Positions 3,697 through 24,943 of a DNA stretch of 64,000 nt are shown here, piece after piece (positions within the stretch are counted from its first letter, which is position 1; each line of letters starts with the position of its first letter). Position numbers and translations under genes: made by a program. The notes beneath the pieces were generated by a model. That model was given only the letters and a program-made list of their open reading frames with translations, did not search any database and was not told the DNA's origin. The DNA is taken from contig OY969695.1 in NCBI GenBank assembly GCA_963701965.1, forward strand, positions 3,456,001 to 3,520,000, given 5' to 3'. The stretch comes from an uncultured Gemmatimonadales bacterium. GTDB taxonomy: Bacteria > Gemmatimonadota > Gemmatimonadetes > Gemmatimonadales > Gemmatimonadaceae.

Positions 3697-4061
3697 GGGA
3701 CGCTTGCGCACACCTCGTCGATCTTCGCCTTCAAGACTTCCGGTGTGAACGGCTTCAGGATATAGCTGTTGACGCCGGCTTCGGCGGCCTGGACAATGTC
3801 GTCCTTCACACTGCGCGTCGTCACCATGAGGATCGGCAGCTTGGCCGTCGCCGCGTTGGCGCGCAGGGCTTTGACCAGATCGAGGCCGCCCATGTTGGGC
3901 ATGTTCCAGTCCGTGATCACGAGCCCCACCGACTGGTCGCACTTGGCCAACGCTTCGCGCCCGTCACCAGCCTCGATCACGTCGGAGAACCCGACCGTCT
4001 TGAGCGCGTTGACCAGAATGCGCCGCATGGTGGCCGAGTCATCGACACACAAACATTTCAT
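3693..4061 (-). CDS. cheY: Chemotaxis response regulator CheY
   Basis: Stand-alone 122-aa receiver: VDDSATMRRI, DWNMPNMGG, MVTT, YILKPFT. Confidence 0.92.
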   Translation of the reverse strand: MKCLCVDDSATMRRILVNALKTVGFSDVIEAGDGREALAKCDQSVGLVITDWNMPNMGGLDLVKALRANAATAKLPILMVTTRSVKDDIVQAAEAGVNSYILKPFTPEVLKAKIDEVCASVP

Positions 4062-4372
4062 AGATCGCTGGCAACTCGATTCGCAATGGTGTCCTGTACC
4101 GAGGCCTGATCGTAGTGCCCGCTGGAGAGTCGTCCGGCGATCGTCGACAGGCGCTCGGCCGATAGCGTGCCCGAGGGCGGCCGCTCTTCGCCGACGGCCG
4201 CCTGCTCGCTCAAGCGCATCGAGTCGGCGGACAACTGCACACTGTCGCCGGGACCGCCGTCCGGCCTCGGCGTCTCGCCACTCGAACGGGCGTTCGCGTT
4301 GCCGTCGACCGACTTGGCGTCCGTCTGCTGCTGAACGCTGTTCGGGTTGACGTGCAAAGGATTAACCGGCAT
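4058..4372 (-). CDS. flgM: Anti-sigma28 factor FlgM
   Basis: 104 aa; DSVQLS motif and C-terminal ERLSTIAGRLSSGHY...IANRV; lies downstream of a sigma28 promoter. Confidence 0.7.
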   Translation of the reverse strand: MPVNPLHVNPNSVQQQTDAKSVDGNANARSSGETPRPDGGPGDSVQLSADSMRLSEQAAVGEERPPSGTLSAERLSTIAGRLSSGHYDQASVQDTIANRVASDL

Positions 4373-4556
4373 GGTCGGTCTCTTCGGCTTCGAGGGCTTC
4401 GCTCAGGGCGCGGGCGGCTTCCGACAGCTCCAATTGATCCTCGTCGGACTGAGGGCGCCGCGGCGCGGGACGGCGCGGTTTCCGGCCGTCCTTGCCGCCG
4501 CCGTATCCGGCTGCAGGCTGAATCCCCGTTGGCCCATCAAGTGGCGAGATTGGCAT
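4362..4556 (-). CDS. Small hypothetical protein (64 aa) resembling the N-terminal half of FlgM
   Basis: Strong GGGGAGG RBS, first gene after a sigma28 promoter, DQLELSEAARAL motif. Confidence 0.6.
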   Translation of the reverse strand: MPISPLDGPTGIQPAAGYGGGKDGRKPRRPAPRRPQSDEDQLELSEAARALSEALEAEETDHAG

Positions 4557-4576
4557 CAGTGCCTCCCCTGCGTACA

Positions 4577-4604
4577 GTATCGGCAGCGGGCGCCGGAACT
4601 TGAG
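4577..4604 (-). promoter_or_regulatory. sigma28 promoter for orf64-flgM-cheY-cheZ
   Basis: CTCAAG-N14-GCCGATAC on the minus strand. Confidence 0.8.
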
Positions 4605-4617
4605 CCCGCGGATGCCG

Positions 4618-5013
4618 CTACGACGCCACCGCCACCGGGACCGGCGACTCGCTCAACCCCATGGCAATCTGGCGGTTAATGTCGATCAACGGCTGCAGCG
4701 CGGCGGCCGAAGGTTTCGCGAAGACCTCGAGGGTCCGGCGATTGATGAAGCGGGTCAGCAGGATCACGTTGATCCGAACCTGCTTCGGCAGCGGGCAATC
4801 GGCCTCCTCGGCCGACGCCTGAAACACGGCCCAGAGGCGCGTGTTGTATTTGAGCGCGGCATCCAACTGGGCCGCGCGATCCGGCGCATCCCAAGCGCGC
4901 ACGACGGCCTCGATTTGTCGTGCGGACCGGAACAGCAAGAAGGCTTCCAGTTCGCGCGGGGAAGTGGCGGTGCGCTGCGCGGCGCGGTATGCGTCAGAGG
5001 CAGTCGTGGGCAT
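4618..5013 (-). CDS. flaF: Flagellin regulator/chaperone FlaF
   Basis: AYRAAQ...SPRELEA, ALKYNTRLW, PLPKQVR and LIDINRQIAMGL motifs; adjacent to flbT. Confidence 0.88.
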   Translation of the reverse strand: MPTTASDAYRAAQRTATSPRELEAFLLFRSARQIEAVVRAWDAPDRAAQLDAALKYNTRLWAVFQASAEEADCPLPKQVRINVILLTRFINRRTLEVFAKPSAAALQPLIDINRQIAMGLSESPVPVAVAS

Positions 5014-5392
5014 GGGCGAGAAGCTCGTGTTCGTAGTTGAGCAGCTCACGCGCCGTTTTGAGCGCGTGGTAGAAGCGGCCTTTGGACAAATCTTCGTTCA
5101 TTCGGGCGATGAACTTGAGCGTGCTGGGTGCGGCCTTGATGACGTCTTGCGACAGCTTGACGTAGATCTCCTGCTGTTGCGCGCGATTCCGCGGCTCGAC
5201 GTACATGAGCTGAATCGCCAGGTAGATCATCCCGCACGGGCTCGTCGCCGTCCGCGGCGTCAGGATGTCGCGCTCGCGGAGAATCGGCACCGTGTTTTCG
5301 ATGATCAACTCGGTGCGGGCGTTGCCGTTGCGGACCACGGCGCCGCCGAGGATCAGTCGTTCATTCGGTTTCAATACGAGTCGAAGCGCCAT
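4994..5392 (-). CDS. flbT: Flagellin mRNA-binding regulator FlbT
   Basis: MALRLVLKPNERLILGGAVVRNG, PILRERDIL, IYLAIQLMY, FYHALKTARELLNYE. Confidence 0.92.
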   Translation of the reverse strand: MALRLVLKPNERLILGGAVVRNGNARTELIIENTVPILRERDILTPRTATSPCGMIYLAIQLMYVEPRNRAQQQEIYVKLSQDVIKAAPSTLKFIARMNEDLSKGRFYHALKTARELLNYEHELLAHAHDCL

Positions 5393-5406
5393 AGATCGTT
5401 CTCTCG

Positions 5407-5435
5407 GTATCGGCAGGGGACAGCCACAACGTGAG
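5407..5435 (-). promoter_or_regulatory. sigma28 promoter for flbT-flaF
   Basis: CTCACG-N15-GCCGATAC, 14 nt before the flbT ATG. Confidence 0.7.
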
Positions 5436-5440
5436 CCCCC

Positions 5441-5475: not shown

Positions 5476-5550
5476 TTTCTTTTCTCATACCGGAACGGGA
5501 CGACGTCAGGTAAGTCGTGATGTGAAAACAATATACGCGTGTAGTCCAGG

Positions 5551-5597: not shown

Positions 5598-7814
5598 ATG
5601 ACCGCTCCCGCCCGACTTGGCCAAAATGACCTGCAAGAGGTGCTCATGTTCGCCCTCGCCCGGCACCGCGCCGGCGACATGGGTGAGGCCGAACGCATCT
5701 ATCGGCGCGTACTGGACATCGATCCGGATCAACCCGACGCGCTGCACCTCCTCGGACTGATTACGCTCGATCGCGATACGGCGGAAGCGGTCGCTCTCCT
5801 GACCCGAGCCGCCGAAGCGGCGCCGACCGTCGCGGCGATCCAGAATGCGCTCGGTACCGCCCAGCGGGCGGCCGGCGCCCTCAATGCCGCGATCGCCAGC
5901 TACACCAACGCGACGCGTCTCGACGAACGTCCCGAGTTCTTGACCAACCTCGCCGCGGCGTTGCTCGAAGCCGGCGACCTGGCCGCGGCCGAAGCCGCGG
6001 CAATGCGCGCGAGTGACCTGGCGCCCCAGTTCCTCGACGCGGCGTTCGTCCTCGGCAACGTCTCTCGCGCCCGCGGCGAACATACGCTCGCCGAGCGGTG
6101 GTACACGCGCGCCACGGCCTCCGATCACCTCAAACGCCCGGCGCTCCTCAATCTGGGCAACACCCGCCGCGCACTCGGCCGGCTGGACGAGGCGATCGCC
6201 ACGTACCAAGAGTTGCTGGCGCTGGGCGCCAGCGAGATGGATGCCACGGCGCGGTTCGCCCTCGGCACCACACTGCGCGATGCGGGCCGCGACACCGACG
6301 CCATGGAATGCTTGCGCGCGCTCGTGTTGCACTGCCCCACGCATCGGGATGGTTGGTTTCATCTCGGTGTCCTGGTGCACCAGTCGGGCGCGGCGCCCGT
6401 CGCGATCGAAGCGTATACCCGCGCCGAACGTTGCGGACTGGATACCGCGGCCCTGCATACGAACCTCGGACTGGCACTGTCGCAGCTCGGACGACTCGGC
6501 GAAGCCGTGGACCATCAGCGCCGCGCGGTGGCGCTCGAGGCCACCGCCGCCGATCTCCGCATCAACCTGGCGACGACGTTGCACCAGGCCGGGGCCCTCA
6601 ATGAGGCGGCGGCGGCCTGCAATGCCGCCATCGCGATCGACCCGCACCGCGCCGCGTCGCATTCGGTCCTCGGCGCTGTCCGCATGCAGCAGGGGCGCCG
6701 CGACGCCGCGTTCGCGGCGCACGCGCGCGCGCTGACGCTCGATCCGCGGTCGGCGACGGTGCTCAACGAATACGCGCACGCGCTCATCGACGACAATGAC
6801 GTCCCCGGCGCGCTGGAGCTGTACCGACGCGCGCTGGACGCCGCGCCGGACATGCCCGAGCTGCATTTTCACCGGGCGCTCGCCTTGCTCTCGGCCGGGG
6901 ACCTCCTCGCGGGTTGGGACGAGTATGCCTGGCGCTGGCGCCTGCCCAAGATGTCGTTGCAATGGCGCATTCCGCGCCCGCTGTGGCAGGGCGAGCCGCT
7001 CGACGGCCGCACGCTCCTGGTGTGGCGCGAGCAGGGGATCGGCGATGAGCTGATGTTCGCCAGCTGCCTGCCCGATCTGGCTGAAGCGGGCGGGCGACTC
7101 ATTATCGCCTGCGCGCCGAAGCTCCGATCGCTCTTCGCGCGATCATTTCCGCGGGCGACCCTCATCGATGAGCGGGCCCTCGCCGCGCCGGCAGCGCTGG
7201 CGGCCGACGTGCACGCCCCTATCGGCGATCTGCCCCGCTGGCTTCGACCGACCGTGGGTGACTTCCCACAACGGCGCGGGTTCCTGAGCGCCGATCCCGA
7301 TCGGGTCGCCGTGTGGAAGCAGCGGCTGGCGGCGCTCGGTCCGGGACCGGCGATCGGGATCTGCTGGCGCAGCGGCCTGCTCACGCCGTCGCGCCGGGCG
7401 GGTTACGCCGCGCTCTCCGAGTGGGCACCCGTGCTGCGCGTGCCCGGCGTCAAGTTCGTGAGCCTGCAATACGACGACTGCGGACCCGAGATCGCCGCGG
7501 CGGCGCACGAGCTCGGGGTCACGGTGCACCAACCCGACATCGATCTCTTGAACGACATGGACGAGGCGGCCGCGTTGACAGCGGCCCTCGACCGCGTCAT
7601 CTCGGCGCCCACCGCGGTCAGCGAGTTGGCGGGCGCGCTGGGCGTTCCCACGTGGCGGGTCACCGCCGGTCGGGATTGGACGATGCTCGGCACCCCGGGC
7701 CGTCCCTGGTTCCCCACCATGCAAATGTTCTCGCGCGCGCCCGGAGAGTCCTGGCGCAATGTGTTCACCCGTGTCGCCGCCGGCCTGGCGACACATCCGG
7801 AGAATGGCTCGTGA
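5598..7814 (+). CDS. TPR-repeat plus GT-B glycosyltransferase (candidate flagellin glycosyltransferase)
   Basis: Many TPR repeats, then WQGEPLDGRTLLVWREQGIGDELMFA, GICWRSG, VSLQY and LAGALGVP. Confidence 0.75.
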   Translation: MTAPARLGQNDLQEVLMFALARHRAGDMGEAERIYRRVLDIDPDQPDALHLLGLITLDRDTAEAVALLTRAAEAAPTVAAIQNALGTAQRAAGALNAAIASYTNATRLDERPEFLTNLAAALLEAGDLAAAEAAAMRASDLAPQFLDAAFVLGNVSRARGEHTLAERWYTRATASDHLKRPALLNLGNTRRALGRLDEAIATYQELLALGASEMDATARFALGTTLRDAGRDTDAMECLRALVLHCPTHRDGWFHLGVLVHQSGAAPVAIEAYTRAERCGLDTAALHTNLGLALSQLGRLGEAVDHQRRAVALEATAADLRINLATTLHQAGALNEAAAACNAAIAIDPHRAASHSVLGAVRMQQGRRDAAFAAHARALTLDPRSATVLNEYAHALIDDNDVPGALELYRRALDAAPDMPELHFHRALALLSAGDLLAGWDEYAWRWRLPKMSLQWRIPRPLWQGEPLDGRTLLVWREQGIGDELMFASCLPDLAEAGGRLIIACAPKLRSLFARSFPRATLIDERALAAPAALAADVHAPIGDLPRWLRPTVGDFPQRRGFLSADPDRVAVWKQRLAALGPGPAIGICWRSGLLTPSRRAGYAALSEWAPVLRVPGVKFVSLQYDDCGPEIAAAAHELGVTVHQPDIDLLNDMDEAAALTAALDRVISAPTAVSELAGALGVPTWRVTAGRDWTMLGTPGRPWFPTMQMFSRAPGESWRNVFTRVAAGLATHPENGS

Positions 7815-8854
7815 TAAATGTCGAGAGCCTCGACTGCGCAGTCGAGGGTGCCCCCACGATCGAACGGCGCACCGGATACCTGTTGACGGACAAGACGGTG
7901 CTGATCACCGGTGGCACGGGATCCTTCGGCCGGGCGTTTGTGCAGACGCTCCTCGACGAGCACTTGCCGCGTCGCGTCATCATCTACAGCCGCGACGAGC
8001 TCAAACAGTCGGAGATGCAGGAGCAGCAGAAAGATCCGCGACTGCGGTTCTTCATCGGGGATGTCCGCGACTTGGAACGGCTCCGTCGCGCCTGCCGTGG
8101 GGTGAACGTGATCGTCCACGCCGCGGCCCTCAAACAGGTGCCCGCGGCCGAGTACAACCCGTTCGAGTGCATTCGCACGAACATCTTGGGCGCCCAGAAC
8201 GTCATCGAGGCCGCGCTGGACAACGGGGTGGAGCGCGTCCTCGCGCTGAGCACGGACAAGGCGGCGAACCCGATCAACTTGTACGGTGCCACCAAGCTCT
8301 GCTCCGACAAACTGTTCATTGCCGGCAACGCGTACTCCGGCGGCCGCGAGATCCGCCTCTCCGTCGTGCGCTATGGGAACGTCGTCGGAAGCCGGGGCTC
8401 GGTCGTGCCGTATTTCCGCGGACTCCGCGAGACCGGCGTGCTGCCGATCACCGATCCGCGCATGACGCGGTTCCTCATCACGCTCGAACAGGGCGTGCGA
8501 TTCGTGATCGCGTGCATTCGCCGGACCTGGGGCGGGGAGCTGTTCGTGCCCAAGATCCCGTCGGCCGACATCGTGAGCCTGGCGGAGGCGATTGCGCCCG
8601 GCGCCGAGTTGCGCACCGTGGGCATCCGGCCCGGGGAGAAGTTGCACGAGATGATGATCAGCGAAGACGATGCGCGGCGTTGCGTCGACATGGGCGACCA
8701 CTATGTCCTCCAGCCGCAGTTCCCCTGGTGGCCAGAGCGGCGGCTGGCGGGTGCGACGGTGCCCGAAGGGTTCGCCTACCGGAGCGACACCAACCCGCAC
8801 CGGCTCTCCGTCGAAGAGATCCGGACAATGCTGGCCAAGCTGAATCTCCTGTGA
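7811..8854 (+). CDS. pseB: UDP-GlcNAc 4,6-dehydratase (inverting)
   Basis: ITGGTGSFG, SRDELKQ, HAAALKQVPAAEYNPFE, STDKAANPINLYGATK, RYGNV, GIRPGEKLHE. Confidence 0.93.
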   Translation: MINVESLDCAVEGAPTIERRTGYLLTDKTVLITGGTGSFGRAFVQTLLDEHLPRRVIIYSRDELKQSEMQEQQKDPRLRFFIGDVRDLERLRRACRGVNVIVHAAALKQVPAAEYNPFECIRTNILGAQNVIEAALDNGVERVLALSTDKAANPINLYGATKLCSDKLFIAGNAYSGGREIRLSVVRYGNVVGSRGSVVPYFRGLRETGVLPITDPRMTRFLITLEQGVRFVIACIRRTWGGELFVPKIPSADIVSLAEAIAPGAELRTVGIRPGEKLHEMMISEDDARRCVDMGDHYVLQPQFPWWPERRLAGATVPEGFAYRSDTNPHRLSVEEIRTMLAKLNLL

Positions 8855-10011
8855 ACGCGGTGCGCGCGCTTCCCTACGCCCGGCAGACCATCGGCCCCGA
8901 GGATATCGCCGCGGTCGTCGAGGCGCTTGGGGCTCCGCTCGTCACCCAAGGCCCGCTCGTCGAAGCCTTTGAAGCGCGGTTCGCCGGGATCGTCGGCGCA
9001 CGGCACGCCATCGCGTTCAACAGCGGCACCGCCGCGCTGCATGGGGCCTATGCCGCCGCCGGCGTGGGACGTGGGCACAAGATCATCACGTCCCCGATCA
9101 CCTTCGCCGCGACCGCGAACGCGGCGCGGTATCTCGGGGCCGAGGTCGATTTCGTCGACGTCGACACCGGCACCGCCCTCATCGATCCGGACTCCGTCGC
9201 CGCGGCTCCGGGGCACGGCGTCTATGCCCTCGTGCCCGTCCATTTTGGCGGACAGGTCGCCGACATGGTCGCGCTTTCGACCATCGCGGGGCGCGAGGGT
9301 TGGGTGGTCATCGAGGACGCGGCCCACGCGCTGGGCGCCTCCTATCGCACGCCCGAAGGCCGGGAGTACCAGGTGGGCGCCTGCGCCCACTCGGCCATGT
9401 GCTGTTTCAGCCTCCACGCCGTGAAGCACGTCACGACGGGCGAAGGCGGTATGGTCACCACGAATGACGCCGAGCTCGCGCGCGTCATGCGCCTCTTCCG
9501 GACGCACGGGATCACGCGGGACCGATCCGACATGCTGCACGACGAAGGCCCGTGGTACTACGAGCAGCACGATCTCGGCTACAACTACCGGCTGACGGAG
9601 TTTCAGAGCGCGCTGGGCATGAGCCAACTGGGCCGGCTGCCCGCCTTCGTCGCCCAACGCCGCGCGATCGCCGCGCAGTACAATGCCGCCTTCGCGGCCG
9701 TCCCTTGCGTGCGCCCTCTCGCGGTGCCCTCGTGGTCCGACGGTTCCTACCACCTGTACGTGATTCGGGTGCCGGCGCCGGCCCGTCGCGCGGTGTTTGA
9801 TGGCCTCCGCGCCGCCGGGATCATGGCCAACGTGCACTACGTGCCGGTCTACCACCACCCGTACTATCAACGCACCGGGTTCGCCGGCTTTGCGCTGGGG
9901 GGCGCCGAGATGTACTACGGGCAAGCCATCTCGCTGCCAATGTATCCGGGGCTGACCAGCGAAGACGTCGCGCGGGTCGTCGATTGCGTCATCGCGCAGG
10001 CCACGGCGTGA
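8851..10011 (+). CDS. pseC: PLP-dependent UDP-4-keto-sugar aminotransferase
   Basis: LPYARQTI, NSGTAALH, IEDAAHALGA, FSLHAVKHVTTGEGG, WYYEQHDLGYNYR. Confidence 0.88.
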   Translation: MNAVRALPYARQTIGPEDIAAVVEALGAPLVTQGPLVEAFEARFAGIVGARHAIAFNSGTAALHGAYAAAGVGRGHKIITSPITFAATANAARYLGAEVDFVDVDTGTALIDPDSVAAAPGHGVYALVPVHFGGQVADMVALSTIAGREGWVVIEDAAHALGASYRTPEGREYQVGACAHSAMCCFSLHAVKHVTTGEGGMVTTNDAELARVMRLFRTHGITRDRSDMLHDEGPWYYEQHDLGYNYRLTEFQSALGMSQLGRLPAFVAQRRAIAAQYNAAFAAVPCVRPLAVPSWSDGSYHLYVIRVPAPARRAVFDGLRAAGIMANVHYVPVYHHPYYQRTGFAGFALGGAEMYYGQAISLPMYPGLTSEDVARVVDCVIAQATA

Positions 10012-10862
10012 CCACGTTCATCGCCGAGGTGTCGAGCAACCACCACGCCGACCTTTCGCGCGCGCTGGCGTTCGTCGACGCCTCGGCGGCCATCGGGTGC
10101 GATGCCGTCAAGTTTCAACTCTTTCGCGTGCGCGAGCTGTTCGCGCCCGAGATCCTGGCGCGGAGCGCGCGCCATCGCGCGCGCGAGGCGTGGGAGTTGC
10201 CGCCGGCGTTCCTGGCGCCTTTGGCCGAGCGATGCGCCGAACGGGGCGTGGCCTTCGGCTGCACGCCGTTCTATCTGCGCGCGGTGGACGAGTTGGCGCC
10301 GTACGTGGCGTTCTACAAGATCGCCTCGTACGAGCTGCTGTGGACCGAGCTCCTCATCGCCTGCGCCCGGACCGGCAAGCCGGTCATCCTGTCGACCGGC
10401 ATGGCCACGCTGGCCGAGGTCGGCGAGGCGGTCGCCACGTTGCGGGGCGCAGGATGCCGCGATCTCACCCTCTTGCACTGCGTATCGGGTTACCCCACGC
10501 CGGTCGCCGAATGCAATCTCTCGGCGATCGCCGAACTGCGCGATGCGTTCGGGTCTCCCGTGGGATGGTCGGACCACAGCGTGTCGCCCGGCGTCGTGCA
10601 ACGCGCCATCCACCGGTGGGGCGCGACCGCGATCGAATTTCACCTCGATCTCGATGGCCAGGGCGACGAGTTTCGGACGGGGCATTGTTGGCTGCCCGGG
10701 CAAATGGCGCCCGTCATCGGGGCGGTCCGCGACGGGCTGCGTGCCGACGGCGACGGCCGCAAGGCGCCGGTGCCGAGCGAGCTGCCGGATCGCGCCTGGC
10801 GCGCCGATCCCAGCGACGGCCTGCGCCCCCTGCGCGCCACCCGGGAGACGTTCGTCGGGTGA
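10008..10862 (+). CDS. pseI: Nonulosonic acid synthase (PseI/NeuB family; 284 aa, appears to lack the C-terminal SAF/AFP-like domain)
   Basis: FIAEVSSNH, DAVKFQ, KIASYE, LSTGMA, LLHCVSGYP, GWSDHS, IEFH. Confidence 0.8.
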   Translation: MTTFIAEVSSNHHADLSRALAFVDASAAIGCDAVKFQLFRVRELFAPEILARSARHRAREAWELPPAFLAPLAERCAERGVAFGCTPFYLRAVDELAPYVAFYKIASYELLWTELLIACARTGKPVILSTGMATLAEVGEAVATLRGAGCRDLTLLHCVSGYPTPVAECNLSAIAELRDAFGSPVGWSDHSVSPGVVQRAIHRWGATAIEFHLDLDGQGDEFRTGHCWLPGQMAPVIGAVRDGLRADGDGRKAPVPSELPDRAWRADPSDGLRPLRATRETFVG

Positions 10863-11827
10863 TGCGCATCCGGTTTCTGGTCACGGGCGGTGCCGGGTGG
10901 GGACTCGGCCACGTCATGCGCACCGCGGTGCTGGCCGGCGAGGCCCGGGAGCGGGGCTACGACGTCCGCGTCGCGCTGCGCGGCGACGCTGCCGCTCGCA
11001 CTGCGCTGTCTGTCGAACTGCCCGACACGACTCCCTGCTGCTGGCCCACAGGCGACGACGTGAGCGCCAACGAGCATCTGGTGATCGACTCTCCGGAGTC
11101 CATTGGGGATGTGATCGCCGCCGCGCGCGACGCGGGGGCGCGGACCGTGGTTATCGATCGCCTCGATCATCTGGACGATGCCGATGCGACGGTGCTTCCC
11201 ATCGTCCACGGCCCGGCGTTACCCCATCCCCGTCTTTTTCAGGGGCCCGCCTACGTCCTCACCGCGCCCATCGTGCGGGCCCACGCCGGCGCGCCCTATC
11301 CGGGCGACCGCCGGGTCGCGCTGATCACGTTCGGCGGCGCCGACCCGGCCGGCCTCACGCTGCCGGTGACCCGCGTGCTGCTCGACACCGGTGTCGACTT
11401 CGAAACGCACGTGGTGATCGGCCCGGCGTTCGCCGAGGCCGACGCGCTGGCCAAACGGCTCACGGCGTTGGGGGCTCGTGTCCATCGCGGCCTCACCCGC
11501 GCCGACGTCGTCGGGCTCATGGTCCGGTCGCGCTTCGCGCTGACCGGGTTTGGCACGAGCTTGTACGATCTCGCCGTCATCGGGACACCGGCCGTCTACT
11601 GGACGCATCGGGCGTCTGATCTCGCCGACGCCGGGCGTCTCGAGACGCGCGGTCTCGGCGCCTGCGCCGGAAGCGGCGATGCCTTTGACGACACGCGCGC
11701 CCGCTCGGCGATCGCACGCACGGTGCTGGACGCTGCGTGGCGCGAGCGGGCCAGTGCCAGCGCGCGGCAACTGGTCGGCGCCGGGGACGGCGCCCGCAAC
11801 GTGCTCGATCTGGTCGCGCGGCTATGA
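10862..11827 (+). CDS. pseG: PseG/SpsG-like UDP-sugar hydrolase
   Basis: GWGLGHVMR, LITFGGADP and GTSLYDL motifs. Confidence 0.65.
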   Translation: MRIRFLVTGGAGWGLGHVMRTAVLAGEARERGYDVRVALRGDAAARTALSVELPDTTPCCWPTGDDVSANEHLVIDSPESIGDVIAAARDAGARTVVIDRLDHLDDADATVLPIVHGPALPHPRLFQGPAYVLTAPIVRAHAGAPYPGDRRVALITFGGADPAGLTLPVTRVLLDTGVDFETHVVIGPAFAEADALAKRLTALGARVHRGLTRADVVGLMVRSRFALTGFGTSLYDLAVIGTPAVYWTHRASDLADAGRLETRGLGACAGSGDAFDDTRARSAIARTVLDAAWRERASASARQLVGAGDGARNVLDLVARL

Positions 11828-13442: not shown

Positions 13443-13454
13443 TCGCGAGGATGC
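13422..13454 (+). repeat. 17-bp-period tandem duplication at the methyltransferase/SDR junction
   Basis: ATGATCGCGAGGATGC-A-ATGATCGCGAGGATGC. Confidence 0.9.
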
Positions 13455-13458
13455 GCTG

Positions 13459-17126: not shown

Positions 17127-19081
17127 CGCTGCACTGCTTCGCCGTCTTTCACCTCAATCTCGCGTTCTCGTCCATCGAGGAAGAACAGCGTCCGACGGTG
17201 ATGGACCGGTGCTACTGGCCGCTGCTCGATCTCGTGCGCCAGCATCGCGTCCCGATCGGGATCGAGGCGCCCGGCTCCACGTTGGAGATGGCCGAGGCGA
17301 TCGATCCGGAGTGGGTCAATGTGCTGCGCGCCCTGGTGCGGAATGGGCAGGTCGAGTTCATCGGCAGCGGATATGCGCAGCTCATCGGACCGCTGGTACC
17401 GGCCGACGTGGTGCGCGCCAACCTGCGCCTTGGGCACGCCGTGTACGAACGATTGCTCGGCGTCCGTCCGACGGTCGCCCTGGTGCACGAGCAGGCCTGG
17501 TCGGCCTCGCTGGTCTCGCATTACCGCGACGCCGGATACGGCGCCGTCATCATGGAGTGGGAGAATCCTCGCGCGACGCACGAGGAGTGGCCGGCCGAAT
17601 GGCGCTACCATCCCCAGCGCGCGCTCGGGACCGACGGCGCATCGATTCCGGTGCTGTGGAATCACTCCATCGCGTTCCAGAAGCTGCAGCGCTACGCCCA
17701 CGGCGAGATCGAGACCGAGGAGTATCTCGAGTATCTGCGCGGCCACTATGGCGCCGGCGATCGGGTACTGGCGATCTACGGCAGCGACGCCGAGGTGTTC
17801 GACTACCGGCCGGGCCGCTATCGCACCGAGGCCGCGCTGAGCGCGCTGGGCGAGTGGCAGCGGTTGAACGCCCTCTTCACTGTGCTGGGCGCCGAGCCCG
17901 GTCTGGCGCCGATCACGCCGAGCGCGGCGCTCGGGCTGATCAATGGTCCGGATGCCGGCCATGATGTGCGGCTGGAAACCGCCCGGCACCCGGTACCGGT
18001 CAAGAAGCAGCCCAAGTATGACCTCGCGCGCTGGGCCGTCACGGGTCGCGATGATCTCGGCATCAACACGGCGTGTTGGCGTATCGCCGAGGCGCTGATC
18101 GCCCGCGGTGGGGACGACAGCGAGTGGCGGGAGTTGTGCTATCTGTGGAGCAGCGACTTTCGCACGCATATCACGGCGTCCCGTTGGGACGCCTATATCG
18201 CGCGTCTCGCTGCGCTCGACGCGCGTCATCGTCGGCCCAGGGTACTCCGGTCGGCGCAGCCGTTGCCGGCCGAGGTCACCGTGCGCCGCGAAGGCCGGTA
18301 CCTGACCGTCGACACTGAAACCGTTGGCGTGCGGCTCAACTGCCGGCGCGGCCTGGCCATCGACGCGCTGACGTTTCCCCATCTCTCGCCGCTGGCGCTG
18401 TGCGGCAGTGTGCCGCACGGCTACTTCGACCGCATCGATTGGAGCGCCGACCAGTACACGGGGTTTCTGGTCCTCGCGGCCGCCGGTCAACACCAGGTCA
18501 CGGATCTCGAGCCGGCCGAGCCCGTGGTGACGTGGGATGAGGCGACCGACCGCGTCATCGTGAGCGCGTGTGTCGGGACGCCGTTGGGCCGGATCGAAAA
18601 GACAATCGCGGTGGGCCGTGCCGACGCGCGGGTGGAAGTGCGCTACCGGCTCGACTGGCCGGAGATTCCGCTGGGGACACTGCGGCTGGGGCACGTCACG
18701 CTCATCCCGACGTCATTCGATGCCGGCTCTCTGTTCTATGCGACGCACAACGGCGGCACGACGCTGGAGCGCTTCGCGCTCGACGGCGAAGTCGATCATG
18801 TGCAGCCCGTGTCCCACCTCGTCTCGTGTCGAGGGGGCGTGGGTGCGACCGGCGGTGTCATCCTACTGGGTGACGCTCAGAGGGCCGTTCAGATAGAGAT
18901 CGACCGGCAGGCGGCGGCGTTGTTTCCCCTGATCACGATGCATCGCATCGGCGACCGCTATCTGTGCCGGGTGACGCTCTCGGCCCGGGAGTTGGATGAC
19001 ACCAGCCGACTGGGCCGGAGTCGTTTCGTCGACGAGCTGGCCTTCGCGATCTCAGGCCGCGAGCGCGCGGCGGCCCTCTAA
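17123..19081 (+). CDS. GH57/NodB-superfamily (beta/alpha)7 protein, putative sugar deacetylase/hydrolase
   Basis: FHLN...CYWPLL, VEFIGSGYAQLIGPL, YGSDAEVFD motifs; C-terminal beta-rich domain. Confidence 0.55.
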   Translation: MTLHCFAVFHLNLAFSSIEEEQRPTVMDRCYWPLLDLVRQHRVPIGIEAPGSTLEMAEAIDPEWVNVLRALVRNGQVEFIGSGYAQLIGPLVPADVVRANLRLGHAVYERLLGVRPTVALVHEQAWSASLVSHYRDAGYGAVIMEWENPRATHEEWPAEWRYHPQRALGTDGASIPVLWNHSIAFQKLQRYAHGEIETEEYLEYLRGHYGAGDRVLAIYGSDAEVFDYRPGRYRTEAALSALGEWQRLNALFTVLGAEPGLAPITPSAALGLINGPDAGHDVRLETARHPVPVKKQPKYDLARWAVTGRDDLGINTACWRIAEALIARGGDDSEWRELCYLWSSDFRTHITASRWDAYIARLAALDARHRRPRVLRSAQPLPAEVTVRREGRYLTVDTETVGVRLNCRRGLAIDALTFPHLSPLALCGSVPHGYFDRIDWSADQYTGFLVLAAAGQHQVTDLEPAEPVVTWDEATDRVIVSACVGTPLGRIEKTIAVGRADARVEVRYRLDWPEIPLGTLRLGHVTLIPTSFDAGSLFYATHNGGTTLERFALDGEVDHVQPVSHLVSCRGGVGATGGVILLGDAQRAVQIEIDRQAAALFPLITMHRIGDRYLCRVTLSARELDDTSRLGRSRFVDELAFAISGRERAAAL

Positions 19082-20027
19082 CCACTCCGCGAACCGCGCC
19101 AGTCCCGCGGTCAGCGTCGTGGCCGGCCGGTAGCCCAGGAGTCGCCCGGCTTTCTCAATGTTGGCCCAAGTCGCGGGGACATCGCCGGGTTGCATCGGCA
19201 GATGTTCGATCGCGGCCGGGCGTCCGAGGGCGTCCTCGATCCCGGTCAGGAGCTCCCGCATCGAGACCGGCTGGTCGTTCCCCAGGTTCATGATCTCGAA
19301 CGGGGTCGCCCGATAGTCGAGCGCCGCCCGAATGCCGGCGACAATGTCATCGACGTACGTGTAGTCGCGCATGGTGGCGCCGTCGCCGAACACCGGCAGG
19401 CGCTCACCGCGCAGGACCTTCGACGCGAACCGGTGAATCGCCAGATCCGGCCGCTGGCGCGGGCCGTAGACCGTGAAGAGGCGGAGCGCCAGGAATCGCA
19501 TGCCGTGCCGCGCGGCGTACTCCCGTCCCAGGTCCTCGCCCAACAGCTTCGTGAGCGCGTATGGGCTGATGGGCTGCAATGCCGCATCCTCGTTCCACGG
19601 CGTATGCGGATTCACGCCATAGACACTGCTCGACGATGCGAAGACGAACTGGGGGATGCCCCGCTCGCGCGCCAGCTCCAGCAGATTGTAGGTGCCGTTC
19701 ACGTTGACATCGTGATACAGCGCCGGGTGTTCGAGCGACGGACGGACCCCGGCCCGCGCCGCCAGAATGCACCACGGCGTCGTAGTCGCCGCGGAGCCGC
19801 GCCCGCAGGGTGGGGAGCGTCCGGATGTCCGACTGGACGAGCGTGTAGCCGCGATAGGCCCCGTGTCGCGCCACCTGCTGGCGCTTGAACGCCGGCGGAG
19901 AGAAGTCGTTGAAGTCGTCGACGACCGTGACGCGCCATCCCTCGGCCAGCAGCGCGTCGGTCACGTGGCTGCCGATGAATCCCGCGCCGCCGGTGACGAG
20001 TGCGTGCCGCGTCATGTGAGAGCTCAT
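19052..20027 (-). CDS. NAD-dependent epimerase (UDP-glucuronate 4-epimerase-like) with apparent +1 frameshift near 19766
   Basis: TGGAGFIGSH...DAVVH in one frame joins LAARAGVRPSL...ASSSSVYG, PYALTK and TVYGPRQRPDLA in the next. Confidence 0.8.
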
Positions 20028-21421
20028 GTGAGGGCCGCCAGCTCGCCGGCGACGCGCGTCAAGAGCGCGCTCCAGTCATGGCGGGGCTCGGCGCCCATGA
20101 TGCGCATCGTCGGATACCACGGCCGCCGCCCGGTGTTGAACGACGTCCAGTCACCCTGGGGGCTCGGCAGGAGCCGCCACGCCGGCACGCCGAGGGCGCC
20201 GCTCAGCTCCCCGACGGCGTTGCCGACGGTGATGACCAGGTCCAGGTTCGCGATCAACGCCGCCATGCCGTCGAAGTCATCGCGCCGGTCGAGATCCGGG
20301 AACTCGTGAATGTGGACGCCGAACCGGTCCCGCGCGGTCGCCAGAGCGAGCGAGCAGTCGTCGTACTGCAGGTTGATGAACTGCGCGCCGGGCGTCTGCA
20401 GCACCGGACCCCACCGGTCGAGCGTCGAGTAGGAACGGGCCCGCTCGGCGGTCATGAGCCCGCTGCGCCAGCTGATCCCCACCTTGAGCCCGGGGCCGAG
20501 CGCGGCGACGCGCGCGTGCCACTGCCGCACGCGCTCCGCGTCGGGAACGAGATACCCTGAGTGCGTGGGGAAGCTCTCGACCGTGGGCCTAAGCCAACGC
20601 GGCAGATCACCGATCGCCGACTGGTAGTCCGCCGCGAGCGGTTCGGCGGGCGGTTCGACCCGGGCCGAGTTGATGACGTCGGCCTGGGGGAACGATCGGG
20701 TAAAGAGCGAGACGAGTCGCGACGTGCAGGCGAACGTCACTTTGCCGGCGCGGGCGATGAGATCGGGCAGGCAGTTGGCGAACATGATCTCGTCTCCCAC
20801 GCCCTGCTCGCGCCACACCAACACGTGCTGGCCCGTGATGTCCTCGCCCGACCACTGCGGGTAGGGGAGTGGATAGCGCCACTTCGCGTACCGCGTATGT
20901 TGCCAGCGGTAGGCGTAGCCTTCCCAGCCCGCCTGGAGATCGCCCGCGCACAACTCGTGGAGGGCCAGATCCCAACGCGCTTCGTTCTGCTCAGGCTTGA
21001 GCGCGACATAGCGCCGTCCGGCCGCGACGCGCTCGTCGAGCAACTCCAGGTCGTCCGTGATCCTCCACAGCGCCGACGCCGCATCCACCGAGTCCGGCGC
21101 GTAGCGCACGGCGTCCCGGAAAAATTCCCGGGCCGCCGGCAAATCGCCCGCCATGGCGCGCAACTGCCCCAGTGCGAGATGCGCGCCGGATAACGTGCGA
21201 TCCAGCGCGAGGGCGCGCCGGAGCGAAGCGACGGCGTCGTCGTGTTGGTTGAGGCTCGCCAGCGCGAGTCCCAGCGCCAGGTGACCTGCCGCGAGCCGCG
21301 GCGTCTCCGCCAGCCCGCGCCGGTAGGCGACGACCGCGGCATCCAGGTTCCCGGACCGGTGCAGTTCCGCGGCCGATTCCAGCGAGCGAACGGCGCGCTG
21401 GATCTTGGCGGTGGCCGTCAC
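20024..21421 (-). CDS. Second TPR plus GT-B glycosyltransferase
   Basis: TPRs, then VWREQGVGDEIMFA, GISWRSG and INLQY; paralog of 5598-7814. GTG start overlaps the upstream stop. Confidence 0.75.
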   Translation of the reverse strand: MTATAKIQRAVRSLESAAELHRSGNLDAAVVAYRRGLAETPRLAAGHLALGLALASLNQHDDAVASLRRALALDRTLSGAHLALGQLRAMAGDLPAAREFFRDAVRYAPDSVDAASALWRITDDLELLDERVAAGRRYVALKPEQNEARWDLALHELCAGDLQAGWEGYAYRWQHTRYAKWRYPLPYPQWSGEDITGQHVLVWREQGVGDEIMFANCLPDLIARAGKVTFACTSRLVSLFTRSFPQADVINSARVEPPAEPLAADYQSAIGDLPRWLRPTVESFPTHSGYLVPDAERVRQWHARVAALGPGLKVGISWRSGLMTAERARSYSTLDRWGPVLQTPGAQFINLQYDDCSLALATARDRFGVHIHEFPDLDRRDDFDGMAALIANLDLVITVGNAVGELSGALGVPAWRLLPSPQGDWTSFNTGRRPWYPTMRIMGAEPRHDWSALLTRVAGELAALT

Positions 21422-21927
21422 GCGTGCACCGGCGCCGCGACCACTTCCAGCGTCGGATCCAGTGCGATGGCCCGTGCGCGGCAGCGGGCCGCCTCCGTCG
21501 GATCTCCCCCAATCTCGCACAGGTGCGCGAGGTTGAGCCATGCCAGCGCGTTCGTGGGATCGATCTCGATCGCGGTCGTGTAGCAGCGTGCCGCGTCGGC
21601 CGGGCGTCCCAGGGCGACCATGACCCGTCCCAGATTGCTATGGTACGCCGGGACCCGGTGTTGGCGCGCGATCGCTTGGCCGATCCAGTCGGCGGCCAGG
21701 GCGTGTTGCCCCAGCTGGCTGGCGGCGACCCCGGCCAAATGCATGGCACCGGGGTCGCTTTCGTCGACAGCCAGTCCCCTCATGTACAACACTGCTGCCT
21801 CTATGTACCGCCCCGCGACGTGGTGCGCGTAGCCGTCCCGAATGTATGTCCGGACCCGAGCGGCATCCGAGGCGGAGAGCGCTGGTGAAGCGTCCCAGTC
21901 CCGCATCGGGGCGAAGTCGAACATCAT
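21418..21927 (-). CDS. Small TPR-only protein
   Basis: About four TPR repeats (AMHLAGV, YHSNLGRV, AWLNLA). Confidence 0.7.
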   Translation of the reverse strand: MMFDFAPMRDWDASPALSASDAARVRTYIRDGYAHHVAGRYIEAAVLYMRGLAVDESDPGAMHLAGVAASQLGQHALAADWIGQAIARQHRVPAYHSNLGRVMVALGRPADAARCYTTAIEIDPTNALAWLNLAHLCEIGGDPTEAARCRARAIALDPTLEVVAAPVHA

Positions 21928-21979: not shown

Positions 21980-21985
21980 TTTGGG

Positions 21986-22855
21986 TCAGAGACCAAAAAG
22001 ATGGAGGACGCTCGCGTTCGCCTGACTAGCCAAGCTCAGAGACTCGATACCGAGGCTCTGGCGAGTCTGGAGGGCCAACATGTTCGCGCCTTCCTGGTTC
22101 GGATCGGCCAGGGTGAGGTTATCCGCGCCCTGGTTCAGGGTGTTGACCGTGCTCGACGCGAACTGCTGACGGATCGTGACCACGCCGAGGTTCGCGGCGA
22201 GGGTCTGCGTCTGCGTCTGGAGGCTGGACAGCGCCGAGGTCAACTGGTTCGCGTGCGTGTCGAGGATGTTCTGGAAGCTCGCATTGCCCCAGCTGTGGGC
22301 GCCGGTCGCACCTGCCGACACGATACCCAGACCGGTGGCCGTCGACGCCGCGAAGGTCGTGCGCCCGCCGGCCAGCGCCGAGAAGCCTTGCAGCTTCAGC
22401 GAGCTGGTGTTGTTCTCGTTGAACACGACGGTCAACGACTGGTTCTCGAGCAGGTTGATGCCCTTGTAGTTGGCATCGGCGACTGCCTGGTTCACCTGCG
22501 TGCGAAGCGTGTTGAACTGCGTCTGCAGCGTGTCGCGGCCGGCCGTCGTCGCCGAGCGGGCCGACTGAATGACACCTTGCATCTGCTGGATCAGGGCCGT
22601 GATCGCGGTGATGCCGTTCTGGGCCTGCGTCACCGTCTGCACCGCCTCACCCATGTCGTTCTGCAGACCCTGGAGGTCGTTGGCGCGGTTCCGCTCCGAC
22701 GACGCCGTGAAGAACGAGCTCGGATCGTCGATCGCGCTGTTGACCTTGAACCCAGTGGCCAGATCGTTCTGGGTCTTGTTCATCTGCGTGGTCGTGTTCT
22801 GGAGGCTGAGCAGGTTCTGCTGCATCGAGGCCGACAGAACGATATTCGTCGACAT
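21986..22855 (-). CDS. fliC: Flagellin (289 aa, alpha/Desulfobacterota type)
   Basis: LSASMQQNLLSLQ...LATGFKVNSAIDDPSSFF and LTLADPNQEGANMLALQTRQSL...SLSLASQANASVL. Confidence 0.93.
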   Translation of the reverse strand: MSTNIVLSASMQQNLLSLQNTTTQMNKTQNDLATGFKVNSAIDDPSSFFTASSERNRANDLQGLQNDMGEAVQTVTQAQNGITAITALIQQMQGVIQSARSATTAGRDTLQTQFNTLRTQVNQAVADANYKGINLLENQSLTVVFNENNTSSLKLQGFSALAGGRTTFAASTATGLGIVSAGATGAHSWGNASFQNILDTHANQLTSALSSLQTQTQTLAANLGVVTIRQQFASSTVNTLNQGADNLTLADPNQEGANMLALQTRQSLGIESLSLASQANASVLHLFGL

Positions 22856-22867
22856 ACTGTGTGTGCT

Positions 22868-22921
22868 CCCATTCTGGGTTGACTGTCGCCGGGTTCTTCC
22901 GGCGGGGTCCCGATTCTCGGG
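22868..22921 (-). promoter_or_regulatory. Structured flagellin 5'UTR with three AGAAY-loop hairpins
   Basis: mRNA sense: CCCG-AGAAT-CGGG, CGCCGG-AAGAAC-CCGGCG, CCC-AGAAT-GGG. The last overlaps the GGGAG SD. Confidence 0.6.
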
Positions 22922-22933: not shown

Positions 22934-22962
22934 GTATCGGCCGGCACCGCCGCCGAGTTGAG
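22934..22962 (-). promoter_or_regulatory. sigma28 promoter for flagellin
   Basis: CTCAAC-N15-GCCGATAC. Confidence 0.85.
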
Positions 22963-22977
22963 GATGTGCTGCACCGA

Positions 22978-23006
22978 CTCAAGTCTGGACACCGCGCCGC
23001 CGATAC
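22978..23006 (+). promoter_or_regulatory. sigma28 promoter for the divergent unknown gene
   Basis: CTCAAG-N15-GCCGATAC, 8 nt before ATG 23015. Confidence 0.85.
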
Positions 23007-23014
23007 TGGACAGC

Positions 23015-23749
23015 ATGTCCGTCAGTGTCCTGACTTCCACGATCCAGAACACGTTTGGTGAGACGCGCACCGATGCGCAGTACATCGGGGATCTCAACAA
23101 CCGTCAAACGTATCGGATCGACTTGACCGGGTCGCTCGTCCCGCGCGATAAGGGCGACTACTACAAGTTCCGCGTCACGGCGAACAACACGAACATTCGG
23201 TTGTTCTCATTCGAGCAGACGGCGGGCAGCGGGACCACTGCCGCCAACAGCTCCAGCACGCCGCAGGGCACGGCCGCCAATCCGCTGGACACCGGCAACC
23301 TCACGTCCCTCGTCGACCAGGGACAGTTGCGGTACCAGTTGTATACCCAGACGGGCAAGCTGGTGGCCGATAGCAGCCCGGGGTCGGGGAACCTGTTCCA
23401 TGCCTATCAGAACCTCACCAGCTCGACGAATATGCAGCTGTCGACGGGCACCTACACGATCAAGGTCTCGCCGGGGCCGAACGCGAACCCGCACACCACG
23501 TACGAGTACCTCTTCACGCTGCGGGGCGACGGTTCGCCGATCACCGATACCAGCACCAATGCCACGCGCCGCGCGTTCGACACCACGGCGACGGCCGCTA
23601 GCAACAAGGACACGACGGTGACGCTCGGCAGTGCCGGGAATGCCACCATCCTGAGCACGAATGCGGGTGTGTCGGAGAGCCTGTTCACCACTCTGCAGAA
23701 CAGCGCCAGCGGCCAGACCAGCGGGTCGACGATCAACCTGCTGGCGTAG
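23015..23749 (+). CDS. Unknown Ser/Thr-rich protein with PPC-like beta-sandwich motifs, candidate flagellar export substrate
   Basis: DKGDYYKFRV...YQLY...GTYTIKVS pattern, no signal peptide, C-terminal GSTINLLA, own sigma28 promoter. Confidence 0.7.
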   Translation: MSVSVLTSTIQNTFGETRTDAQYIGDLNNRQTYRIDLTGSLVPRDKGDYYKFRVTANNTNIRLFSFEQTAGSGTTAANSSSTPQGTAANPLDTGNLTSLVDQGQLRYQLYTQTGKLVADSSPGSGNLFHAYQNLTSSTNMQLSTGTYTIKVSPGPNANPHTTYEYLFTLRGDGSPITDTSTNATRRAFDTTATAASNKDTTVTLGSAGNATILSTNAGVSESLFTTLQNSASGQTSGSTINLLA

Positions 23750-23750
23750 G

Positions 23751-24908
23751 CTAGGCTGTCGGTCCCAAATAGTTCGCCAACGAGAGACCGAGCACGCGGC
23801 TGGTCGCTTCGTACGCCGCGCTCAGCGCCGTCTGCGCGGTCAGGAGCTGCGTCGCCACCTGCGCCGTATTGATATTCTCGATATTCCCCTGCTGGGTGCT
23901 CAGGCTCGCCGCCTGGGTCGACTGCGTGCTGGCCGTGTTCTGCATCGTCTGCAGTGTCACGCCGGTCTCACTCTGGAGCCCCAGCACCTGCGTCTGCGTG
24001 CTCTCCAGCTGCGTGGTGGCCGAGGAGATCGTGTCGCTGGTCCCGGTCTGGAGCGCCTGCAGGGTCCCCTGGAGGGCGGCGATCGTGTTGCCGAAGATCT
24101 GGTCGCCGGTATGGTTCGTCGACACGGTCTGGCCGCTGCCAATGAGCGCTTGCGGGCGGTTCGTATCGCCCTGATAGGACAGGCCGGATGCGACGGCGAT
24201 CGTTTGCTTGTTGAGCGCCGCGACCGTGAACCCGGTGCCCGCCGCGATGGTGACGCCGAGGGTGCTGAAATTGAGCGCCGTCGTGCCGTTGGTCACGCCC
24301 GTGATCGTCTGCGACTGCGTCGGATCGCTCTGATTCGTCAGTGTGACGTCGCCGGCGCCGTCGGTGGTCAATTCGTAGACACCGGCTTCCGCGCCACTGC
24401 CCACAGTGACCGCACCGTCGGTCGCGCTGAGACTCGTGCCAACGAGTCCCGCCGTGCCAGGGGGCGTGGCCTGCATCGGCGGCTGGTCGGTCTTCAAGCC
24501 TCCAAAGACGTAGTTGGAGCCCACCTGCGTATTCGCCAGGTCGACGACCTGTTGCAGCAAGTCGTTGATCTCGGTGATCGCCGAGGTCCGGGTGGAGTCC
24601 CCGGGCTGCGAGTTGGCCGCGCTGGCCGCGCTCGACTGCGCCGAGGCCAGCATCTGGTTCACCGCCGTCTCCACCGAATCCTCGGTATCGAGATTCGTCT
24701 GGACGACAGCCTGATTCTGCTGGTACTGGGTGATCGCCGCCTGATTGAACGAGATGTTTATGACCTGACCCGTTCCCTGTGGGTCATCCGACGGCTGATT
24801 GAGCTTACGCTGCGTCGCCAACTCCCCGGCAAGTTGCTGGAGCTGGCTGTCCTGCGTCATTATGCCGTTGACCAGCGTTTGGTACCGGCTGAGGTCTGAA
24901 ATTCCCAT
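23751..24908 (-). CDS. flgL: Hook-filament junction protein FlgL
   Basis: ATQRKLNQPSDDP, LANTQVGSNYVFGG, ALSAAYEATSRVLGLSLANYL. Start moved to ATG 24908, just after the promoter. Confidence 0.88.
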   Translation of the reverse strand: MGISDLSRYQTLVNGIMTQDSQLQQLAGELATQRKLNQPSDDPQGTGQVINISFNQAAITQYQQNQAVVQTNLDTEDSVETAVNQMLASAQSSAASAANSQPGDSTRTSAITEINDLLQQVVDLANTQVGSNYVFGGLKTDQPPMQATPPGTAGLVGTSLSATDGAVTVGSGAEAGVYELTTDGAGDVTLTNQSDPTQSQTITGVTNGTTALNFSTLGVTIAAGTGFTVAALNKQTIAVASGLSYQGDTNRPQALIGSGQTVSTNHTGDQIFGNTIAALQGTLQALQTGTSDTISSATTQLESTQTQVLGLQSETGVTLQTMQNTASTQSTQAASLSTQQGNIENINTAQVATQLLTAQTALSAAYEATSRVLGLSLANYLGPTA

Positions 24909-24915
24909 ATCGTTG

Positions 24916-24943
24916 GTATCGGCAGCTCGGCGAAAAAGTTTAG
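24916..24943 (-). promoter_or_regulatory. sigma28 promoter for flgL
   Basis: CTAAAC-N14-GCCGATAC (TAAA-N15-GCCGATAC), 7 nt before the ATG. Confidence 0.8.

Follow-up and report, generated by a model that had tools for sequence, protein, structure and literature searches.

The window analyzed here, a 64,000-nucleotide stretch of the single-contig genome (5.12 Mb, 94.96% complete) of an uncultured Gemmatimonadales bacterium, is taken up by one flagellar cluster whose filament genes seem to differ in descent from those of its motor. Quite probably, the motor, the sigma factor FliA and its anti-sigma factor FlgM, all of the Gemmatimonadota type, were kept, and the fliW-fliC-fliD-fliS block gave way, in situ, to a mobile set made of a flagellin, FlaF, FlbT, sugar genes and a gene that we call orfX, with csrA likely lost and the new set working in the order proposed below. 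The FlbT/FlaF module and the FliA/FlgM hierarchy are each already known; what our analysis adds to an earlier examination of this DNA by its letters alone (the sequence-only reading) is a candidate filament cap, orfX, and a candidate site for FlbT, an AGAA hairpin in the flagellin leader. The combination is rare in this phylum, yet it is a recurrent flagellar type overall.

The filament genes and their place in the cluster

Family presence was judged by profile searches against Pfam and NCBIfam cut-offs. On the minus strand, flbT (4994-5392; PF07378, E 1e-39), predicted to encode a regulator binding flagellin mRNA, is adjacent to flaF (4618-5013; PF07309, E 3e-27, with NF009435 over cut-off), predicted to encode a flagellin export chaperone analogous to FliS, and such adjacency is what marks the FlbT/FlaF filament module. 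The flagellin gene fliC (21986-22855, minus strand) is of the alphaproteobacterial/FlbT type, with its best NCBIfam scores to PRK12688 and PRK14708; the top seven PDB matches of its product are flagellins of 270-273 amino acids (aa), four of them named Flj. A Flj/alpha-type flagellin in a genome (94.96% complete) without FliD or FliS is likewise what the module is known by. Genome-wide searches with FliD_C, FliD_N, FliS, FliW and CsrA gave no match on this one contig at that completeness, and the positive controls matched. The lack of fliD, fliS, fliW and csrA that the sequence-only reading had noticed in the cluster is thus confirmed for the genome, where neither a fliD or fliS elsewhere nor a second canonical flagellin was found, fliC encoding the only flagellin besides FlgL.

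Among 221 sampled Gemmatimonadota genomes, flagellin exceeded its cut-off in 58, FliD in 50 and FlbT was present in six, namely the window genome and five of genus g56. FlbT and FliD were mutually exclusive in this sample, FliD being found in none of the six FlbT genomes and in 50 of the 52 other flagellin-positive ones. A sample of 321 genomes of the family yielded a single further FlbT genome, G532. With 11 genomes of family f10 left out of the count, CsrA and FliS were present in 38/41 and 39/41 FlbT-negative flagellated relatives, respectively, against 0/10 FlbT-positive ones; in several FliD-type relatives csrA comes after flgK, whereas the window genome lacks it.

The slot where the exchange would have taken place becomes visible by comparison with the closest motor clusters, G163 and G196. 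Their order is of the FliD type, flgL-fliW-fliC-fliD-fliS-orf-(orf64-like)-flgM-cheY, and that of the window is flgL, orfX (on the opposite strand), fliC, TPR and sugar genes, flbT-flaF and orf64-flgM-cheY. The genes on both sides appear to be native: flgL (23751-24908, minus strand; TIGR02550 over cut-off), for the hook-filament junction, occupies the same place in FliD-type relatives, and flgM (4058-4372, minus strand) precedes cheY in these relatives as well. The small gene orf64 (4362-4556, minus strand), preceding flgM, has homologs in G196 and G532, is found in FliD-type sister clusters too, and forms the downstream edge of the swapped block. A distance of 28 kb separates flgL from flgK (53240-54616, plus strand; TIGR02492), which ends the motor operon. 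The sequence-only reading was right about this separation, but not in seeing it as a sign of rewiring, an interpretation we rejected because flgL lies at least 25 kb from flgK in all 11 FliD-type clusters, out of 13 retrieved, for which both genes were obtained, and the spacing is normal in the phylum.

When phylogenies of module and motor genes were compared, as the sequence-only reading had proposed, they proved incongruent, in that the motors split while the FlbT-FlaF-FliC sets group. In the motor tree (11 genes, 18 rows, LG+G4, with eight genomes of fewer than five genes and four outgroups left out) the window and G532 are sister to the FliD-type G163/G196 with support of 100/100, and an approximately unbiased (AU) test rejects one clade of the five FlbT-type motor clusters (p 3.6e-38), a group chosen after viewing an initial tree. 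In the 77-row module tree, the phylum's FlbT-FlaF-FliC sets form one group with one Eisenbacteria and one Myxococcales record (98 in the Shimodaira-Hasegawa-like approximate likelihood ratio test, SH-aLRT), and a tree of FlbT and FlaF gives the same grouping of the phylum's sets (88/90). This reads as one related filament set inserted into at least two motor lineages. Because the FlbT-type motors are not one clade, a foreign set has likely taken the place of fliW-fliC-fliD-fliS, the block bounded by flgL and flgM, more than once. The claim that an acquired module replaced the usual late genes is hence upheld by the comparison with G163/G196 and by the AU test. Base composition gives no signature of the module, as the G+C content of third codon positions is 0.81-0.90 over module and motor genes.

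Two further genomes deserve mention. G261 (L103), an uncultured member of the Gemmatimonadaceae, belongs to the same motor clade as the window and shares its gene order; its locus (L285:908-4078) is a minimal flgL-fliC-flbT-flaF-flgM arrangement with no adjoining paralog or sugar genes, and its genome has no orfX. In the Eisenbacteria genome G235 (L092, L176, L296), where the motor genes follow a Gemmatimonadota-like order, there are two module-type flagellins, two FliA over cut-off, and CsrA.

Between flbT-flaF and fliC lies a region of about 16 kb with genes for nonulosonate sugars and TPR proteins. Two genes (5598-7814, plus strand, and 20024-21541, minus strand) encode proteins with TPR repeats and a C-terminal domain that has no meaningful Pfam match; both products are likely FlmG-type, FlmG of Caulobacter being a glycosyltransferase that combines TPR repeats with a GT-B domain, and the first would thus be a putative flagellin glycosyltransferase. 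The second has a counterpart 3' of fliC in G532 and in g56 genomes, and TPR genes are present at 70 of 85 FlbT loci. The genes at 7811-19081 (plus strand) make up a pathway for a pseudaminic-acid-type sugar with accessory enzymes, in which PseB and PseC exceed their cut-offs and the matches to PseI/NeuB, PseG and a cytidylyltransferase fall under theirs. Part of it (13459-19081), held in common with G532, encodes an SDR reductase, an acetolactate-synthase-like enzyme, an ATP-grasp protein and a 678-aa protein without assigned function, and these enzymes possibly add an unusual acyl decoration to the flagellin sugar.

Sigma28-type control and orfX

The sequence-only reading had placed fliA and flgM in one cluster with flbT, flaF and the flagellin, and in this it was correct. 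FliA, the sigma28 factor (47288-48058, plus strand), scores 236.8 bits with TIGR02479 (cut-off 189.6). FlgM, here a divergent anti-sigma28 factor, has no Pfam match by itself and reaches E 0.015 with TIGR03824; it was recovered through a profile of 21 Gemmatimonadota orthologs, which matches 30/30 Pfam-positive FlgM loci of other phyla (E 7e-4 or better) and which, scored on 765 frames, has its next match at E 0.27, with the window protein and one orf64-like row among its 21 rows. FlgM and the orf64 product have a D-x-x-x-L-S motif in common.

To locate promoters, a sigma28 matrix was built from 20 sites of other genomes and scored across 5.1 Mb; the resulting sites are sequence motifs, from which transcription is inferred. 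The four highest-ranking ones genome-wide precede orf64-flgM-cheY (4577-4603, minus strand, rank 1; conserved in G532, G163 and G196), orfX (22979-23006, plus strand, rank 2), fliC (22934-22961, minus strand, rank 3) and flgL (24916-24942, minus strand, rank 4), the orfX and fliC motifs being divergent and both conserved in G532, L306 and L307. The motif before flbT-flaF (5407-5434, minus strand) ranks 11th and has a counterpart before flbT of G532, where all five window sites in fact recur. Motifs of the kind noticed in the sequence-only reading before flbT and fliC are therefore there, at ranks 11 and 3. With the strict pattern T[AC]AA-N14-16-GCCGATAH, four of the 11 sites in the genome fall within the cluster. 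A general sigma28 promoter on flbT was considered and rejected, as the motif precedes flbT in only 4/67 cases in other phyla, with no enrichment outside this sub-lineage. Just upstream of motA (57323-58195, minus strand) we found a GCCGATAC motif, with the site at 58212; in relatives the sigma28 motif at this place is complete. Elsewhere in the genome, a strong site of the sigma28 type (G000:C1:4780650, minus strand) stands ahead of a gene for a 429-aa protein, the start of which we take to be like that of EAL/HDOD proteins. Between flgC and fliE, orf79 (27330-27569) is a small gene conserved in these clusters.

The best 80 FlbT loci in GTDB genomes belong mostly to Nitrospirota, Desulfobacterota and Alphaproteobacteria, and 50 of them, picked for long contigs and spread, were tested, 47 from non-alphaproteobacterial genomes and three from alphaproteobacterial controls. 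FliA exceeded its cut-off in 45 of the 47, FlgM in 40 and FliD in one, and 39 had FliA and FlgM without FliD; the three controls had neither FliA nor FlgM. A sigma28 -10 motif precedes 29/64 non-alpha flagellins (2.8 by shuffling) and 3/39 alpha flagellins (2.0 by shuffling). The idea that the window holds a unique hybrid is consequently not borne out: few genomes of the phylum have the combination (6/221), yet it is routine in the sampled Desulfobacterota and Nitrospirota. A literature search, for which few subscription papers were within reach, returned no publication that deals with orfX, with the AGAA element, or with FlbT alongside FliA/FlgM in the phyla concerned; papers cited below are cited from the portions that were accessible.

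The gene orfX (23015-23749, plus strand; 244 aa) is the divergently oriented neighbor of fliC in the window, and likewise in G532, L306 and L307. In the phylum it is found in 9/10 FlbT-positive and 0/15 FlbT-negative genomes, and all of its copies there form one clade (99/98). Eight g56-type copies are distant from the cluster, and six of them carry an exact sigma28 -10 motif 20-27 bases upstream, the other two a one-base -10 variant with a good -35. Among 291 Alphaproteobacteria, orfX is present in 20, all of which are among the 111 FlbT-positive genomes (nominal p 1e-9, overstated as kin are not independent), and it lies directly 3' of flaF in four of these carriers; five orfX-bearing alphaproteobacterial genomes that were tested all lack FliA. 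We consider it very probable that orfX belongs to this module as a late flagellar gene. In several small-genome orfX-bearing alphaproteobacteria (L356, L357, L358 and L364-L367), flbT was present and no flaF was detected in the 9-12 kb fetched around it.

What OrfX does is harder to say. The protein has no Pfam match, FliD families included; ten relatives are close to it (45-54%), and 97 representatives reach E 0.001 or better. Its model (predicted local distance difference test score 80, from 60 sequences) is a beta-sandwich with a low-confidence tail, closest to the PPC/collagen-binding domains of collagenases (5iku, Z 10.0, root-mean-square deviation 3.1, 111 residues). Fold searches returned no cap protein among their matches, which is still compatible with homology to an unlisted family. 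FlaY of Caulobacter has a beta-propeller fold. The first 40 residues of OrfX show no hydrophobic, signal-peptide-like stretch, and prediction of an OrfX-flagellin complex gave a score of 0.00, which counts neither way. The function to which we lean, if slightly, is that of a late accessory, such as a secreted adhesin, a filament coat or a glycan-binding helper, on a filament that is capless or relies on another factor: PPC/collagen-binding folds are binding modules, tandem multi-domain OrfX homologs exist, two alphaproteobacterial copies adjoin pseB/pseC-like genes, and many FliD-less genomes do without orfX. Such a role, however, does not account easily for the sigma28 motif being retained in 8/8 unlinked copies (six exact), nor for the position of orfX in the slot after flaF/flbT, which is filled by DUF1217 in a Sulfitobacter plasmid (a locus with no orfX match) and by CP1, clustered with fliC-flaF-flbT in one species of the Rhodobacterales, whose mutant secretes flagellin and forms no filament (PMC12363192, accessible portions).

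Alternatively, and tentatively, orfX could be a substitute for the cap. The top 32 sigma28 sites in the genome, inspected by eye only, offered no obvious other candidate. The distribution of orfX weighs against such a role: 16 of the 20 alphaproteobacterial copies are not beside flaF, and the gene is absent from G261, from 91 of 111 FlbT-positive alphaproteobacteria and, apart from one weak match (E 3.6e-4), from a further 43 FlbT genomes outside the alphaproteobacteria. Being absent from so many FlbT genomes, it cannot be a general cap substitute. If OrfX did act in this way, it might represent a new class of polymerization factor, a small exported PPC-type beta-sandwich that takes over from FliD as the cap in Gemmatimonadota and in some Alphaproteobacteria, and which with flagellin, FlaF, FlbT and the AGAA operator would make a complete plug-in kit that repeatedly displaced FliC, FliS, CsrA-FliW and FliD under an unchanged sigma28 switch; this wider proposal is speculative.

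The flagellin leader and the proposed working order

The leader of fliC is predicted to fold into an element (22866-22904, minus strand) made of a hairpin with an AGAA loop (22887-22904) and a CCAGAA motif (22872-22877) directly 5' of the Shine-Dalgarno sequence. It occurs once in the genome, at fliC, where Rfam has no family. A similar arrangement, an AGAA hairpin and a second CYAGRA before the ribosome site, is found in 35/46 module leaders overall, that is in 9/13 of the Gemmatimonadota group and in 26/33 of Desulfobacterota, Nitrospirota and a betaproteobacterium, against 1/37 alpha leaders (second motif in 22/37) and 0/7 FliD-type leaders. GGA hairpins, which are CsrA-type sites, are present in five of the seven FliD-type flagellin leaders. 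In an alignment of the 35 leaders, 84.7% of cells pair and 50 are changed on both sides, compared with 18 when shuffled and in excess of every slid control, figures that are biased high because these rows were chosen for having a hairpin and also served to derive the motif. The AGAA element is a likely site for FlbT, the RNA element recognized by this protein being called unresolved in the accessible part of PMC4347634.

Besides the bias just mentioned, some findings weigh against a repressor bound at this element. GGA hairpins are also present in 4/13 module leaders and 23/37 alpha leaders. In Brucella, FlbT is reported as an activator (PMC8781033 and PMC4347634, portions of both). In Caulobacter, FlbT is a repressor that binds the leader and requires the paralogous flagellin FljJ (PMC7591256, PMC3930126, as far as accessible), and the window has no counterpart of the latter. 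A divergent flagellin paralog of 155-290 aa with a YPP motif does occur at 46/85 FlbT loci, mostly between fliC and flbT, and may be an FljJ-like regulator or a cap helper; its relation to flagellin rests on a profile comparison (probability 95.8, E 7.5e-9), Flagellin_N being matched by 4/43 members. Carriers (e.g. L087:9162-9998 and L010:10413-11000) belong to Desulfobacterota, Nitrospirota, g56 Gemmatimonadota and one betaproteobacterium. As the paralog profile matched nothing in the window's genome, FlbT would act here alone or with the structural flagellin.

It is possible, although we hold it to be rather less likely than repression, that FlbT activates or stabilizes the flagellin mRNA, in which case the system would have one checkpoint, FlgM, and a feed-forward boost. 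Along with the Brucella reports and the lack of an FljJ-like co-repressor, such a role would fit the sigma28 motif that flbT has of its own and a small hairpin that the fliC leader can also form over the ribosome site, which a protein could open. However, the AGAA element sits where relatives have CsrA-type GGA hairpins, the flagellin is nearest among solved structures to Caulobacter Flj, in an organism where FlbT represses (PMC7591256, in part), and a Phaeobacter flbT mutant remains motile (PMC12363192, in part). Repression by FlbT is the reading to which we incline. The leader hairpin raises the likelihood of the second, translational control postulated by the sequence-only reading. Since flbT has its own sigma28 motif upstream and the genome lacks a second, regulatory flagellin, this control would more probably serve as a feedback brake, adjusting flagellin synthesis to the rate of export, than as a checkpoint early in assembly.

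In the order that we propose, FliA would be held by FlgM until the hook is complete and FlgM then exported, as the families of both proteins imply. FliA would transcribe flgL, fliC, orfX, flbT-flaF, flgM-cheY and motA, judging by the motifs upstream of them. FlbT would bind the AGAA hairpin and the second AGAA near the ribosome site and restrain flagellin translation, filling the part played by CsrA/FliW in relatives. By analogy with Caulobacter, for which the accessible text of PMC7591256 describes FlaF as chaperone, FlbT-FljJ repression and FlmG, the flagellin would be glycosylated by the TPR proteins and delivered for export by FlaF instead of FliS. Finally, in the least certain of the steps and one we regard as rather doubtful, OrfX would be exported and aid flagellin polymerization instead of FliD.

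Origin of the cluster and comparison with known systems

The history outlined above could also be read in reverse, with the FlbT-type set as the older one in this motor branch and FliD-type genes returning several times. The phylum's FlbT sets and its orfX copies each form one clade, as expected of one early acquisition, and basal branching in the f2-type motor clade is poorly resolved. Such a history would nevertheless need at least three returns of FliD (in G043, in G163/G196 and in the G142-G021 group), where the opposite direction needs two or three gains, and each return would have to rebuild the fliW-fliC-fliD-fliS order and csrA after flgK. Furthermore, the tree of FliD-type late genes retains the family split of the motor tree, with a G043-G163-G196 grouping not rejected (p 0.13), and this fits FliD as the older state. 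We therefore consider the reverse order improbable.

Replacement of an older FliD-type block by an FlbT-type set has, for its part, several points against it. Neither Desulfobacterota/Nitrospirota nor Hyphomicrobiales is rejected as sister in a donor test (AU p 0.13 and 0.25, respectively). The combination being present elsewhere and not peculiar to this lineage, sigma28 control of the set may predate its arrival. The window motor (24950-54616) groups with family-f2 clusters and not with those of its own family, and flagellin was found in 0/5 same-genus genomes, so that the entire cluster, not just its late genes, may be foreign to the genome and have moved after the swap. Lastly, fliG, flgE and fliM, as well as an NAD-dependent epimerase gene, are split by frameshifts in this assembly (at about 30003, 36445, 38395 and 19750). 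A delta-type donor, entertained at one stage, was dropped when a single non-alpha FlbT clade was lost upon adding 10 alphaproteobacterial sets and one from Sulfitobacter.

That the cluster is decaying and makes no flagellum, as these frameshifts and the flagellin-less genomes of the genus might suggest, is unlikely, given that split genes are about as common elsewhere in the assembly (3/33, against four real cases among 33 window genes, a fifth flag being a long-query artefact), as indel errors would produce, that late genes and motifs are intact, and that flgE is whole in G532. The frameshifts fit assembly indels. Two public read runs (shares 0.06-0.07) contain scraps of sequence only and are silent on expression and frameshifts.

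If replacement in place is correct, the textbook split between FliA/FlgM with FliD/FliS/CsrA on one side and RpoN with FlbT/FlaF on the other is not fixed, and filament genes would constitute an exchangeable unit with one-for-one analogs, whose FliA-coupled form is widespread in little-studied phyla. Both the RNA element recognized by FlbT and the growth of filaments in FliD-less flagella outside Caulobacter become testable. The orfX family has homologs in culturable Azospirillum; the two from Azospirillum lipoferum that we viewed are not near flagellar genes.

Compared to known systems, the window shares with Caulobacter crescentus FlbT, FlaF, a Flj-like flagellin, putative TPR-type glycosyltransferases, pseudaminic-acid-type genes and the lack of FliD and FliS. 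Caulobacter, however, has no FliA and relies on RpoN, with six flagellins that include the regulatory FljJ, and with FlaY (PMC7591256, PMC13277936 and PMC3930126, accessible portions), whereas the window has FliA, FlgM, sigma28 motifs, one flagellin, no FljJ-like paralog, and orfX. PMC13277936, in its accessible part, reports the co-presence of FlaF and FlbT and treats FlaF as the analog of FliS and FlaY as that of FliD. With the canonical FliA/FlgM hierarchy, as found in FliD-type Gemmatimonadota, and for which PMC13277936 gives co-presence clusters, the window has in common FliA, FlgM, FlhF/FlhG, gene order and motor genes, and the positions of flgL and flgM are kept; it differs in lacking the canonical flagellin as well as fliW, fliD, fliS and csrA, and the AGAA element replaces GGA hairpins. 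The fliC-flaF-flbT-CP1 cluster of Rhodobacterales and the flaF-flbT-DUF1217 genes of Sulfitobacter resemble the window in combining a FliD-less set with a fourth, lineage-specific gene, which in the window encodes a PPC-fold protein and in Rhodobacterales encodes CP1; according to the portions of PMC12363192 at hand, CP1 was not found in the exoproteome, and control in that system is by CtrA. Also comparable are Desulfobacterota and Nitrospirota such as Geomonas, Citrifermentans bremense and Desulfatitalea alkaliphila, which show the same combination, the sigma28 motif before the flagellin and the AGAA element, but keep flgK and flgL together where these were retrieved, usually carry the flagellin paralog between fliC and flbT, and lack orfX.

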